Positions 11,587-17,671 are shown, numbered from the stretch's first letter. The stretch: 18,518 nt of DNA from Promethearchaeota archaeon (GCA_016839585.1 JAEOTZ010000006.1:1-18518), one strand, 5' to 3'. Notes: generated by a model from the letters alone, not told the origin. A program made the numbers and translations.

Positions 11587-13290
11587 TTATTTGATCTCTC
11601 CTCTTTCCTTCATCTTTGCTATTTCTTCATCTTTAAGCTTTCTCTTAAAAATCTTCATAGCTAGAGTTAATGGCAGAGTTTTCCTAAATTCAATATATTT
11701 AGGGACTGCATATGGTGGAAATTTCTCTTTACAATATTCAATTATGTCATCGGTGGTAATTTTACCAAGAAATTTAGGATTTAATAGTATAAAAGCTTTT
11801 ACTCTTTCACTTCCAGGACGTTCAGGATCTGGGATTCCAATAATCGCTGCCTCGTTAACTGCTGGATGCTCATATAAAATATCTTCAAAAACGCGGGAAT
11901 ATACTTTCATTCCAGATACACTTATCATATCTTTAATTCGGTCTACTATATAGAAATAACCATCCTCATCCATTTTTCCAATATCACCTGTTGCTATCCA
12001 TCCATTTTCAGTAATTCCTTTACCAGGAGTAGGCCAATATCCTTTCATAAGTTGAGGACCTCGTACAATTATTTCTCCAGGTTCTCCGAATGGAACTTCT
12101 TCACCAGTATCTGGATCAACTAATTTAACGTCGGTATCAGGAACAGGTACACCAACACTTCTTTTGACTTCTGCCATAAATCCTGTAACTTTTGAAAGAC
12201 CAGAAAGATTTAAATGTGTTATCGCTGATTCAGTCATTCCATAACCCTCACCTAACGGTACACCTGTTTTTTTCTCAAATTTTTCAGCGATTTCAGGAGG
12301 AAGAGGTGCGGCGGCAGAATAATAAAAAATTGGCATCCTTGGTATATCTCTCTCAGCGAATATCATGTAATGAGTGGGAACCGCACAAACCATAAAAGGT
12401 CGATGTTTTTTTATTATATCTAAAATTCTATTAATATCCCTTGGGTCAACTAAAAACATATTCATAGCCATATAAATAGCAGCAAATGCCATCATATGTC
12501 CATATTGATGAAATATGGGAACACATATTACTAAAGAAGCTTTTCCTTTTATTCCTACTTCCAATGGTTTTATATACCACTGAAATGTCTGAATAATAGT
12601 TGTAGTAACATTATAATGAGTTAGCATTGTCCCCTTTGGAACACCTGTAGTACCTCCAGTGAAAGGTAATTCAGCAAGATCCTCCTTAGGATCTATCTCA
12701 ACATCAGGAGGATTTGGTTCACATTTGTTCATTAAATCTTCAAATAAAACTGCTCCGTATGTTTCTTTTATTTCCGGTAATGAATAATCAGGAAAAATGG
12801 GAACACGGGTATAAATCATAGTTTTAACATTTATTTTTTCTTTTATTTCATTAACCCGTTCAAGGCGTCTATATGAACAGATCACAGTTTCGGCTTTAGA
12901 TTCACCTAGTTCATATAATAAATCTGGAGCTTTATGCAGTATGCTTAGAGGAACATGAATTGCACCTATACGTAAAATTGCAAAATCACTAATTATATAC
13001 TGTGGACAATTTGGAAGTATAGTTGCAACTCTATCACCTTTTTTTATCCCTAAATCTGAAAGTGCTGTAGCAAATTTATCAACTTGTAATTTTAATTCTT
13101 CATAGGTTAATACATCATCCATAAAAGTAATAGCTTTGCTTTCAGGGAAGGTAGCTGCTGAGTCTTCAAGAAATTTATAAACTGATATTTCTGGATATGG
13201 GCCCATAGTTTCCTCGAGTTTAAAAGGTCCAAGCTTATAACTTTTCTTCCATGGTTTATCAGCATATGTTAATTTTTTTTCTGCTGTTAT
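11587..13290 (-). CDS. Long-chain fatty acid--CoA ligase (FadD-like, ANL superfamily); proposed ATA start
   Basis: FTGGTTGVPKG, EGYGMTE, TGDIG…DEDGYFYIVDRIKDMI, C-terminal Lys in LPLTLAMKIFKR. The proposed start ATA 13290 follows SD AAGGAGGGG. The ORF-track TTG 13353 lies inside AOR and upstream of the SD. Confidence 0.92.
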   Translation of the reverse strand: MTAEKKLTYADKPWKKSYKLGPFKLEETMGPYPEISVYKFLEDSAATFPESKAITFMDDVLTYEELKLQVDKFATALSDLGIKKGDRVATILPNCPQYIISDFAILRIGAIHVPLSILHKAPDLLYELGESKAETVICSYRRLERVNEIKEKINVKTMIYTRVPIFPDYSLPEIKETYGAVLFEDLMNKCEPNPPDVEIDPKEDLAELPFTGGTTGVPKGTMLTHYNVTTTIIQTFQWYIKPLEVGIKGKASLVICVPIFHQYGHMMAFAAIYMAMNMFLVDPRDINRILDIIKKHRPFMVCAVPTHYMIFAERDIPRMPIFYYSAAAPLPPEIAEKFEKKTGVPLGEGYGMTESAITHLNLSGLSKVTGFMAEVKRSVGVPVPDTDVKLVDPDTGEEVPFGEPGEIIVRGPQLMKGYWPTPGKGITENGWIATGDIGKMDEDGYFYIVDRIKDMISVSGMKVYSRVFEDILYEHPAVNEAAIIGIPDPERPGSERVKAFILLNPKFLGKITTDDIIEYCKEKFPPYAVPKYIEFRKTLPLTLAMKIFKRKLKDEEIAKMKERGEIK

Positions 13291-13296
13291 GTTTTT

Positions 13297-13305
13297 CCCC
13301 TCCTT
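13297..13305 (-). promoter_or_regulatory. Shine-Dalgarno motif AAGGAGGGG upstream of ATA 13290
   Basis: Minus strand reads agttaAAGGAGGGGaaaaacATAACAGCA. Confidence 0.7.
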
Positions 13306-13328
13306 TAACTGTGATTTAAATTCGAGTA

Positions 13329-15200
13329 TTAATAAATCTCCTGTATAACCCAATCTAATCCAAGATCTTTGAGTTTTTCTTGAGTTGGTTTACCAGTTTC
13401 TTTATCCCATCCACGATATTCATAATATGCATCCAAAAGAGGATCTAAATTTACTACATGCCCTTTAGCAGGACCTTCTGGTAATGGTTCTTCCAATAAG
13501 CGTGGTGGAAGTGTATCATCTGCTCTAGTTATTCCTTCTCTTATATTATATACTCTCGCGAGATTATAGAGTCGTTCACCTGTTATTGCAAAATCTGTAG
13601 CTGTAAAACTATAACCTAAAAGTTTTTCAATTAAGGATGCCCAATCTTCTGAGGATAAAACCATTCCCATAAATTTACAACCACCAATAGCATCAAAAAT
13701 ACCAAATGCATCTTCGAATTCCTTAACAACTCTGGTATCTTCAGGATTTTCTTTAAGTGAATCTCCTACCATAGCATTTTCAACGATCATAAAAGGCATA
13801 GCTAAAAATGCAGGACCCTCTATATATCCGGTAATGTGACACCCACCTCGATTTGCAGTAGCATATGCTAACCCCGTTATTTTAGCAGCTCTACTATCAT
13901 ATGCAGGAAGTTCTAATCCTTTAACTTGCATTGCAAACTTAATAGAGTCTTTTCCAAGTTTATTAGCCATGTTTCTCGTTCCCTCTGCTAGTAGATCTCC
14001 AACACCTTCTCTATTACCTATTTTTGGAATAAGATCTACAACAAGATCAGCATCACCAAAATTAAATTCAAGCCCGTCCGTATCTTCCTTAGTTAAAATT
14101 CCTTTCTCGAAACACTCCATTGCAAAACCAATAGTGTTTCCTGCAGAAATTACATCAAGTCCATACTCATTACAAAGAAAATGTGCTAAAGTAATTGCTT
14201 CTAAATTATCAACATCACACATAGTTCCCAAAGCTCCTAATGATTCATATTCAGGACCTTCACCTTTACTCTTATATTTTCCTTCCTTAATTTCAGCAAT
14301 TCTTCCACAAGCGATTGGGCATGCAAAACAGGGCTTTCTGCCAATAAGAATATTTTCATTAATTGCGGTTCCATTAATTTTATCTGCAGCTGGAAAGACA
14401 CCAGTTTGCCAGTTTCGCGTAGGTAATCCTCCCTTCACATTTACTAAATCAACCATAGTAGCTGTTCCAAATACTTCTAGAGTCATTTTTAATAAACTCT
14501 GATTGACCCAATCATATCTTTGCTTAGCCTCGGTTTTATATTCTTCTGGGTTTGCTACTTCAATTTTAGCATTTCCCTTAGATGCGATGGCTTTTACTTT
14601 TTTAGATCCCATTACTGCTCCTAACCCACATCTTCCAGCTGCTCGACCGTAATTAGGTTCATCACAATCATTCATTATTGCAGCATATTTAACTAGATTT
14701 TCTCCTCCAATCCCAATACATGCAACATTGAACTTATCCCCTAAATCTTCTTTAATTAATTTTGTAGTTTCTGATGTATTTTTACCCCATAAATGTGAAG
14801 CCTCTCTGAGTTCTGCCTTCCCATCCTCAGTAACAAGATAAACAGGTTTTGAAGAGATCCCTTCGAAAATAACTCCGTCAAAACCAGATCTTTTAAGATC
14901 TCTGCCCCAAAAACCAGCTGAATTCGCTTGTCCCCAGATACCAGTAAGAGGAGATCTAGCAACTACACTATATCTTCCGGTACTTGGAGAGGGAGTCCCT
15001 GTTAAAGGTCCAGTCATGAAAATTAACTTATTTTCTGGTCCTAATGGATCTATCCCCTTCTTTGTTTCTTTTAAAAGATACCATGTTGAAAGTGCGGCAC
15101 CTCCTAAGTACATTTTTAATGTTTCCTCATCAGGAAACTCTTCGCTAATCTTTCCGTTAGCTAAATCAACTCTTAAGATCTTTCCCATATAACCGTAAAT
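13329..15200 (-). CDS. aor: Aldehyde:ferredoxin oxidoreductase (tungstopterin family); proposed ATT start
   Basis: GKILRVDL, GRAAGRCGLGAVMGSK, CFACPIAC ([4Fe-4S]), GPEYE, NEYGLD, RGGCH, GGCKF. Extending from ATG 15188 to ATT 15200 restores the typical MYGYMGKILRVDL N-terminus. Confidence 0.95.
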   Translation of the reverse strand: MYGYMGKILRVDLANGKISEEFPDEETLKMYLGGAALSTWYLLKETKKGIDPLGPENKLIFMTGPLTGTPSPSTGRYSVVARSPLTGIWGQANSAGFWGRDLKRSGFDGVIFEGISSKPVYLVTEDGKAELREASHLWGKNTSETTKLIKEDLGDKFNVACIGIGGENLVKYAAIMNDCDEPNYGRAAGRCGLGAVMGSKKVKAIASKGNAKIEVANPEEYKTEAKQRYDWVNQSLLKMTLEVFGTATMVDLVNVKGGLPTRNWQTGVFPAADKINGTAINENILIGRKPCFACPIACGRIAEIKEGKYKSKGEGPEYESLGALGTMCDVDNLEAITLAHFLCNEYGLDVISAGNTIGFAMECFEKGILTKEDTDGLEFNFGDADLVVDLIPKIGNREGVGDLLAEGTRNMANKLGKDSIKFAMQVKGLELPAYDSRAAKITGLAYATANRGGCHITGYIEGPAFLAMPFMIVENAMVGDSLKENPEDTRVVKEFEDAFGIFDAIGGCKFMGMVLSSEDWASLIEKLLGYSFTATDFAITGERLYNLARVYNIREGITRADDTLPPRLLEEPLPEGPAKGHVVNLDPLLDAYYEYRGWDKETGKPTQEKLKDLGLDWVIQEIY

Positions 15201-17202: not shown

Positions 17203-17216
17203 CCTTTAACTTTAGT

Positions 17217-17222
17217 AAGGTG
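17217..17222 (+). promoter_or_regulatory. Shine-Dalgarno motif AAGGTG, 8 nt upstream of ATT 17231
   Basis: Sequence reads tagtAAGGTGcttttcagATTTTAAATAAAGTAGGTATG. Confidence 0.65.
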
Positions 17223-17230
17223 CTTTTCAG

Positions 17231-17671
17231 ATTTTAAATAAAGTAGGTATGGGCGGGACATTTGATCATCTTCATGAGGGTCATAAATCTTTAATAAAAA
17301 CAGCTGTATCTTTTTCAAATAATATTGTGATCGGGTTAACTACTAAAAAATTATTAAAGAATAAAAAGGCAGCTTCAAAACTTGAAAATTATAAAACAAG
17401 GAAACGTAATTTAGAGGAGTTCATTAAAACAATAGCTGATATTAATAGAGTCCAAATTATTGAATTAAATGATATATATGGACCGCCCATCAATGATCCT
17501 GTATATGATGGAATAGTGGTTAGTCAGGAAACTTATAAGGTAGCTATAGAAATTAATGAAATTAGGGAGAATAAAGGATTTAAACCATTGATAATCATTG
17601 TTATTCCAATTATAAAAGATAAAAATAATAAAAAAATTAGCTCAACTGTTATTCGTAAAAAACTGTTTTAA
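17231..17671 (+). CDS. coaD: Archaeal/eukaryotic-type phosphopantetheine adenylyltransferase; proposed ATT start
   Basis: GGTFDHLHEGH, DIYGPP, IVVSQET, EINEIRENKGFKPL, KISST. The ATT start restores the first beta-strand (LNKVGM). Confidence 0.92.
   Translation: MLNKVGMGGTFDHLHEGHKSLIKTAVSFSNNIVIGLTTKKLLKNKKAASKLENYKTRKRNLEEFIKTIADINRVQIIELNDIYGPPINDPVYDGIVVSQETYKVAIEINEIRENKGFKPLIIIVIPIIKDKNNKKISSTVIRKKLF

Follow-up and report, generated by a model that had tools for sequence, protein, structure and literature searches.

Putative AUU and AUA translation starts behind Shine-Dalgarno motifs in a Loki-type Asgard archaeon and its genus

Archaeal initiation is held to use AUG, GUG and UUG. NCBI translation table 11 allows ATT, ATC and ATA as initiators, and animal mitochondria start genes at AUA and AUU with no Shine-Dalgarno (SD) motif, a changed code (AUA = Met) and a modified tRNA-Met. 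AUU-started genes of bacteria include E. coli infC, which encodes IF3 and is under translational autocontrol, and pcnB (PMC4705826, citing Butler 1987); in eukaryotes, eIF1 is autoregulated by way of the poor context of its start codon (PMC4705826, citing Ivanov 2010). In an Asgard archaeon, a "rare ATT start codon" was proposed for AtubA from a Kariarchaeaceae (Heimdall-type) metagenome-assembled genome (Sci Adv 2026, PMC13394414). That case was the only one found in full-text searches of the literature, which gave no systematic description of lineage-wide starts of this kind in Asgard archaea. Here we describe three genes from a stretch of 18,518 nucleotides of a Promethearchaeota archaeon (GCA_016839585.1, JAEOTZ010000006.1:1-18518; the whole stretch is called the window), which encode a tungsten-type aldehyde:ferredoxin oxidoreductase (AOR), an archaeal-type phosphopantetheine adenylyltransferase (PPAT) and an acyl-CoA ligase of the AMP-binding family, and in which an SD motif points at an Ile codon instead of a canonical start (ATG, GTG or TTG). 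The codons ATT, ATA and ATC are referred to together as ATH (AUH in mRNA). To judge from its database homologues, which are labelled Lokiarchaeota or Promethearchaeota, the source is an uncultured Loki-type Asgard archaeon; its assembly (G000) comprises 3.45 Mb in 91 contigs at 29% G+C and was rated 99% complete.

As read from these genes and their relatives, AUU is very probably the start of AOR and PPAT and AUA most likely that of the acyl-CoA ligase, and such initiation would be routine in the genus. At least 40-50 genes in the genome appear to use ATT, ATA or ATC, and a few ACG, in the same arrangement. Some of these ATH starts are conserved and old (AOR, PPAT, a ThiF-like E1, XPD and aIF1); those of the ligase and a nitroreductase arose recently by a change from ATG to ATA. 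The arrangement resembles that of infC in having an AUU start behind an SD motif and in that the gene of a fidelity factor is itself AUU-started, here aIF1, with ATT in 22 of 22 same-genus orthologues. Bacterial AUU genes, however, amount to a handful, whereas the genes counted here include metabolic and repair enzymes; the machinery is archaeal aIF1/aIF1A/aIF2 and not IF3. As with eIF1, the gene of its homologue aIF1 has a weak initiation site, but what makes the site weak is the Kozak context of an AUG in eukaryotes and, here, a non-AUG codon behind an imperfect SD. The AtubA case follows the same argument as our PPAT case, as the deposited protein was without its first beta strand and an upstream ATT at a plausible distance from the ribosome-binding site restored it; that paper treated a single gene as a rarity, in another Asgard class and with no genome-wide or comparative analysis. 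In line with table 11, the PPAT orthologue is already annotated with an ATT start in one NCBI record (GCA_048938895.1), but NCBI makes such calls case by case, driven by homology, and most database entries of PPAT are truncated. With mitochondria the organism shares a high AT content of the genome and a regular use of AUH codons as gene starts; unlike in mitochondria, internal ATA and ATT codons here still align with Ile positions, and an SD motif was required for detection.

PPAT was the strongest of the three cases. The gene (17231..17671, plus strand) has 146 codons counted from the ATT at 17231-33, and its product was assigned by Pfam to CTP_transf_like with the GGTFDxLHxGH motif (3e-17) and matched 3do8, a phosphopantetheine adenylyltransferase that begins MKVALGGTFE, at 5e-17. 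The initiation region (17216..17230, plus strand) consists of an in-frame TAA at 17216-18, the SD AAGGTG at 17217-22 overlapping it, and a spacer of 8 nt. The ATT lies 7 residues before GGTFD, the same distance as in 3do8 and in ATG-started relatives, and the first ATG is at 17249, six codons after the ATT. ATT was found in 17 of 17 same-genus orthologues, with (A/G)GGTG or AGGAGG 8 nt ahead of it. It was immediately preceded by TAG or TAA in five of the 17, and from the upstream stop to the ATT none had a canonical codon. Codon 2 drifted (CTA, CTT, CTC, TTA) while the ATT stayed fixed. Other families of the order had ATG or GTG at or just upstream of the ATT position, and a more distant member of Promethearchaeia (NCBI record GCA_052626505.1) had ATG at the ATT codon itself. 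A second, partial copy of PPAT was seen on another contig of the assembly (C54:666-926, plus strand); it covers residues 59-145 at 80% identity, contains three TAA stops and is probably a pseudogene fragment.

AOR (13329..15200, minus strand) has 623 codons from the ATT at 15200-15198 to the stop at 13329-13331, and AFOR_N and AFOR_C covered its full length in Pfam (E = 1e-76 and 1e-138). Its initiation region (15201..15215, minus strand) is built like that of PPAT, with an in-frame TGA at 15215-13, the overlapping SD GAGGTG at 15214-15209 and a spacer of 8 nt. The stop 5 codons upstream of the ATT in both genes had been pointed out in a preliminary description of the window, and all three SD-to-Ile-codon sites were present exactly as given there. 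The gene opens with ATT TAC GGT TAT ATG, so that the first ATG is at 15188. The comparison comprised the 15 same-genus orthologues (78-89% identity) whose 5' end was in hand, and all 15 had GAGGTG, 8 nt, and ATT TAC GGN TAT ATG. Among them the ATT was invariant, codons 2 and 3 varied only at synonymous third positions, and the spacer was fixed in length and free to vary in sequence, with GAGGTG kept. Met1 of the solved P. furiosus AOR/FOR proteins (1aor and 1b25, which begin MYG) aligned with the ATT, and the N-terminal 100 residues matched 1aor at 8e-26; the residue aligned with the ATG of the window gene was internal, as is also the case in 9mqx (N-terminus MFGYMGK). Paralogues of AOR in the same genomes had an ATG start one codon earlier. 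The fixed ATT, the restriction to synonymous changes and the alignment of Met1 argue that the four codons before the AOR ATG are translated, with no canonical start for them. Upstream of AOR lies a long, AT-rich intergenic region with an AGGTGA at 15395-15415 (minus strand), followed 10 nt on by TTG TTG and five codons later by a stop; it may reflect an SD that arose by chance or a very short leader ORF (open reading frame).

The genome-wide test was made on 2960 non-overlapping stop-to-stop ORFs of at least 100 codons, in which in-frame codons behind GGTG and upstream of the first canonical start were scored. At spacings of 7 and 8 nt the counts were 13 and 12 for ATT, 15 and 7 for ATA, 20 and 14 for ATG, and 21 and 7 for TTG, and no 7-8 nt peak behind GGTG was seen in this ORF set for AAT, TTA, TTT or TAT. 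The spacings in the window (GGTG at 8 nt in AOR and PPAT, 6 nt in the ligase) were in keeping with the 7-8 nt peak of ATG and TTG in the genome. In a stricter count, which required at least 5 further codons without a canonical start, GGTG stood at 7-8 nt before 45 of 2356 ATH codons and before 43 of 13997 of all other non-canonical codons (odds ratio 6.3, p=4e-16). Among starts with the GGTG core, ATH (45) was as frequent as ATG (34). No excess of ATH was found at spacings of 4-5, 10-11, 13-14, 16-17 or 19-20, nor with the motifs CACC and GTGG. When any 5-mer of the SD consensus was accepted at an aligned spacing of 6-9, there were 75 ATH matches against 26 expected, an excess of about 49 genes. 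Typically, an ATH match followed a stop by 0-5 codons and was itself followed by 10-135 codons with no canonical start. When the SD was defined loosely, by consensus 4-mers, the test was too noisy (odds ratio no higher than 1.1-1.4), and an inspection by eye of 87 ORFs with long start-free extensions, about 35-40 of which had an SD variant followed by ATH, gave a count that we do not rely on.

The same test was applied to 800 kb of one genome of the same genus (G022) and to 800 kb of one genome from another family of the order (G038, 31% G+C). The former gave ATH 6 versus ATG 7 (odds ratio 5.7, p=0.003) and the latter ATH 2 versus ATG 10, which was not significant; this genus thus has a strong ATH habit, which in the G038 relative is weaker or not shown, and the negative result at 31% G+C implied that a low G+C content alone does not make the test positive. 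The routine use of AUH codons suggested in the preliminary description was therefore borne out by the spacing-specific excess behind GGTG and its repetition in G022, and the orthologous 5' regions agreed, in that ATT and SD were conserved in the genus for AOR and PPAT and canonical codons stood at the ligase ATA position. Its remark that most ATG genes have a weak SD or none also held genome-wide, since GGTG stood 5-11 nt ahead of the start in only about 4% of 2033 ATG-first ORFs, in agreement with what has been published on Lokiarchaea (PMC12993045, PMC7531240). Among the ATG genes of the window only that at 3809-5008 (minus strand) had a clear SD, with GGTGA at 5009-5030 and the ATG 10 nt behind GGTG. 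Three ACG codons were also found 7 nt behind GGTGA, in FlpD/MvhD, Fer4 and NosD-like genes (C26:65322, minus; C37:25063, minus; C37:81125, plus), each 0-2 codons after a stop and followed by 30-114 codons without a start. A conserved ACG start of MvhD/FlpD was considered and rejected, as the ACG is genome-specific and an ATG one codon before the aligned position serves as the start in the orthologues.

Twenty genome-wide candidates were scanned against Pfam, and in at least 8 of them (FlpD, nitroreductase, Roadblock, two Fer4, ThiF, XPD and cupin) the domain began upstream of the first canonical codon. In the genus, the ThiF-like E1 had an ATH codon in 20 of 20 orthologues (ATT in 14, ATC in 5 and ATA in 1), behind a (G/A)GTGA whose TGA is the in-frame stop, and in other genera ATG occupied the same codon. 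XPD had ATA in 19 of 21 orthologues. In the single ATG-started XPD orthologue (L282, on contig C4 of G019), GCTG was present where all others had the SD core GGTG, which points, as an anecdote, towards a trade-off between SD and start codon. Since the candidates span many functions, the link to coenzyme A metabolism that had been seen in two of the three window genes was rejected as coincidental. A dependence on translational coupling was likewise discarded, as only 33% of the ATH starts lay within 60 nt of the end of an upstream same-strand ORF. Three paralogues of G000 with an N-terminus of the type G-V/I-N-I-G-A..-D-C (C45, plus, start near 34084; C59, minus, near 35892; C79, minus) had no canonical start for 44-82 codons and a GAGG(A/T)-type SD 5-6 nt before ATT or ATA. 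A GT2-like gene (C54:17249, minus) and a [NiFe]-hydrogenase-like gene (C59:48558, plus) had conserved N-termini directly behind GGTGA and no canonical start; their start codon was ambiguous, being ATC at 4 nt or TTA at 7 nt in the former and ATT, CTG or CAA in the latter.

The ligase differed from the other two genes in the history of its start. The gene (11587..13290, minus strand) has 567 codons from the ATA at 13290-13288, with the Pfam domains AMP-binding and AMP-binding_C, and its initiation region (13291..13305, minus strand) contains the SD AAGGAGGGG at 13305-13297 and a spacer of 6 nt. This motif (GGAGGGG) is the strongest SD of the window. The first ATG is 28 codons downstream of the ATA (about 13206). 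The ligase was syntenic with AOR across the genus, and in 16 syntenic orthologues the codon aligned with the ATA was ATG in 13, TTG in 2 and GTG in 1, followed by the conserved TYADKPW, with GGTG, GAGTG or AGGAGG-type motifs at the SD position. These canonical starts at the aligned codon indicated that the ATA marks the true start position and is a genome-specific change from ATG; the ATA itself was not conserved across species. An assembly or sequencing error for ATG could produce the same picture, as ATA was seen in this genome only and ATG in all close orthologues. The frame also happens to be open back to an in-frame TTG (13351..13353, minus strand) inside the 3' end of AOR, absent from the preliminary description, from which the ligase might start by coupling to AOR termination. 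We regard an error or a TTG start as unlikely. An unlinked nitroreductase gene on contig C37 (33822-34391, minus strand) showed the same ATG-to-ATA change behind GGTG, with ATG in all 22 same-genus orthologues, and together with the conserved ATA of XPD it makes an assembly error improbable. The TTG at 13353 was judged an unlikely start, as it has no SD upstream and the 21 codons between it and the ATA were neither open nor conserved in orthologues, while the strongest SD of the window lies 6 nt before the ATA.

For all three genes, translation might instead begin at the first downstream canonical codon (ATG 15188 in AOR, ATG 17249 in PPAT and ATG about 13206 in the ligase), with the ATT or ATA stretch serving as a 5' leader. 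Gene callers choose this start, as seen in 73 of 120 PPAT homologues in the database, whose first residues are MGGTFD; all AOR orthologues share the AOR ATG, and a start there keeps the whole of AFOR_N. In PPAT, however, TTA or CTA occupied the position of the window ATG in 15 of 17 orthologues, and in 14 of 17 the next ATG, GTG or TTG was at codon 21-71, past the catalytic HxGH, so that a start there would delete the GGTFDxLHxGH motif. In AOR, the purely synonymous changes before the ATG and the match to the MYG and MFGY N-termini of solved AORs are at odds with an untranslated leader, and the distance from the SD is 20 nt for the AOR ATG and 26 nt for the PPAT ATG. In the ligase, the downstream ATG would remove the conserved TYADKPW, and the orthologues start at the ATA position. 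Taken over the three genes, we consider a downstream start improbable. The same evidence bears on two earlier claims. The expectation of truncated annotations was confirmed by the MGGTFD entries, which are without the first beta strand. The statement that the first ATG would remove conserved residues stood for the TYADKPW N-terminus of the ligase; in AOR only 4 residues would be lost with the Pfam domain intact, and the Pfam domain of the ligase begins after its first ATG.

Initiation at the AUH codons themselves, the reading preferred here, would insert Met and probably proceed with lower efficiency. The SD duplex with its GGUG(A) core would pair with the conserved archaeal 16S 3' end AUCACCUCCU, a pairing partner assumed from the conserved archaeal sequence (PMC7531240), and this pairing would set the codon 6-8 nt downstream in the P site, where the ordinary initiator Met-tRNA (anticodon CAU) would accept a third-position mismatch. 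An ordinary initiator Met-tRNA on an SD-placed mismatched codon is the most economical reading, since the codons used (AUU, AUA, AUC, a few ACG, UUG and GUG) are one-mismatch neighbours of AUG. A dedicated decoding device, such as a variant or modified initiator tRNA or mRNA editing, appears very improbable by comparison. Mitochondria do read AUA with a modified tRNA-Met; in the present assembly nothing direct pointed to such a device, and what could be said for it is that the initiator tRNA was not identified among 24 tRNA matches, many with introns. The codon set is the classical one of near-cognates of the anticodon CAU, and the interchange of ATT, ATC and ATA in one gene across species (ThiF) fits third-position tolerance better than a new anticodon. 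As to the tRNA complement in general, 24 matches were obtained with Rfam and 18-22 with ARAGORN, and the sole "Met(cat)" call looked unreliable. That ATT and ATA fall behind GGTG by chance is hardly credible and was rejected as the source of the genome-wide pattern, since, common as these triplets are at 29% G+C (1826 ATT and 1460 ATA in frame upstream of first canonical starts), the excess was confined to GGTG and to a spacing of 7-8 nt, control codons made up of A and T only (AAA, AAT, TTA, TTT and TAT) gave 13/5616 against 45/2356 for ATH, the sites were conserved across species, and the Lokiarchaeial genome of 31% G+C gave only 2 ATH matches in the same test.

Several observations weigh against AUH initiation as described above. 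The AOR ATG four codons downstream is also conserved, and a start there gives a nearly complete protein. The ligase ATA was seen in this one assembly only. The 16S 3' end was not found in the assembly, where the pattern GGATCACCTC matched only a non-rRNA site, and the initiator tRNA was not identified there by ARAGORN with and without introns, Rfam or an anticodon-stem pattern. Sulfolobus aIF1 discriminates against AUU in vitro (PMC4705826). Furthermore, the SD length was 5.8 nt for ATH starts and 5.7 nt for SD-led ATG starts. Of the preliminary proposal that AUH initiation occurs where a strong SD compensates, AUH initiation and the presence of an SD were thus supported, but a stronger SD as the compensating element was discarded, because its length was no greater than at ATG starts. 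TTG-first ORFs were GGTG-led 2.7 times more often than ATG-first ORFs (p=2e-4), which fits weak codons needing an SD; for ATH, the dependence on SD is partly built into the detection, as ATH starts are recognisable only through the SD.

The aIF1 (SUI1) gene of the source genome (C73:9245-9574, minus strand; L091:1462-1791) was without an ATG, GTG or TTG start. Its ATT was invariant in the genus, with TGA or TAA in frame 3-4 codons upstream, and the leader AAGGTTGTGATAAGAGAGT, which contains in-frame TGA and TAA, was nearly invariant as well; in other families of the order the gene had TTG, GTG or ATA. A weak start on the gene of a fidelity factor, of the infC/eIF1 type, was therefore found in aIF1. 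In P. abyssi aIF1, the loop-1 residues R31, Y32 and K34 are needed for 30S:mRNA binding (PMC6237735). No obvious loss of these residues was seen here, as RKWGR corresponds to RRFGK in M. jannaschii aIF1 (4mo0) and the basic and aromatic character is kept, which does not support an aIF1 variant of relaxed fidelity. The ATH starts would be weak and may be tuned by the level of aIF1. Translational control through ATH starts, as had been suggested, would have its one pointer in the conserved ATT of the aIF1 gene itself. It is conceivable, although rather doubtful at present, that the genus has made AUU, AUA and AUC a regular fourth class of start codon whose use is set by the aIF1 level, with the dozens of AUH genes (AOR, PPAT, E1-like ThiF, XPD and others) forming a stringency-responsive regulon.

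Gene finders limited to ATG, GTG and TTG will cut ATH-started proteins short or miss them. Structural and biochemical work on Asgard proteins thereby starts from wrong N-termini, as the authors of the AtubA tubulin study found. If true, the maintenance of AUH by selection in dozens of genes, one of them encoding the start-codon-checking factor, in a lineage that adjoins the eukaryotic stem would be a notable exception to the accepted set of archaeal starts, and it would offer a testable handle on the evolution of start-codon stringency and of feedback control between archaea and eukaryotes.

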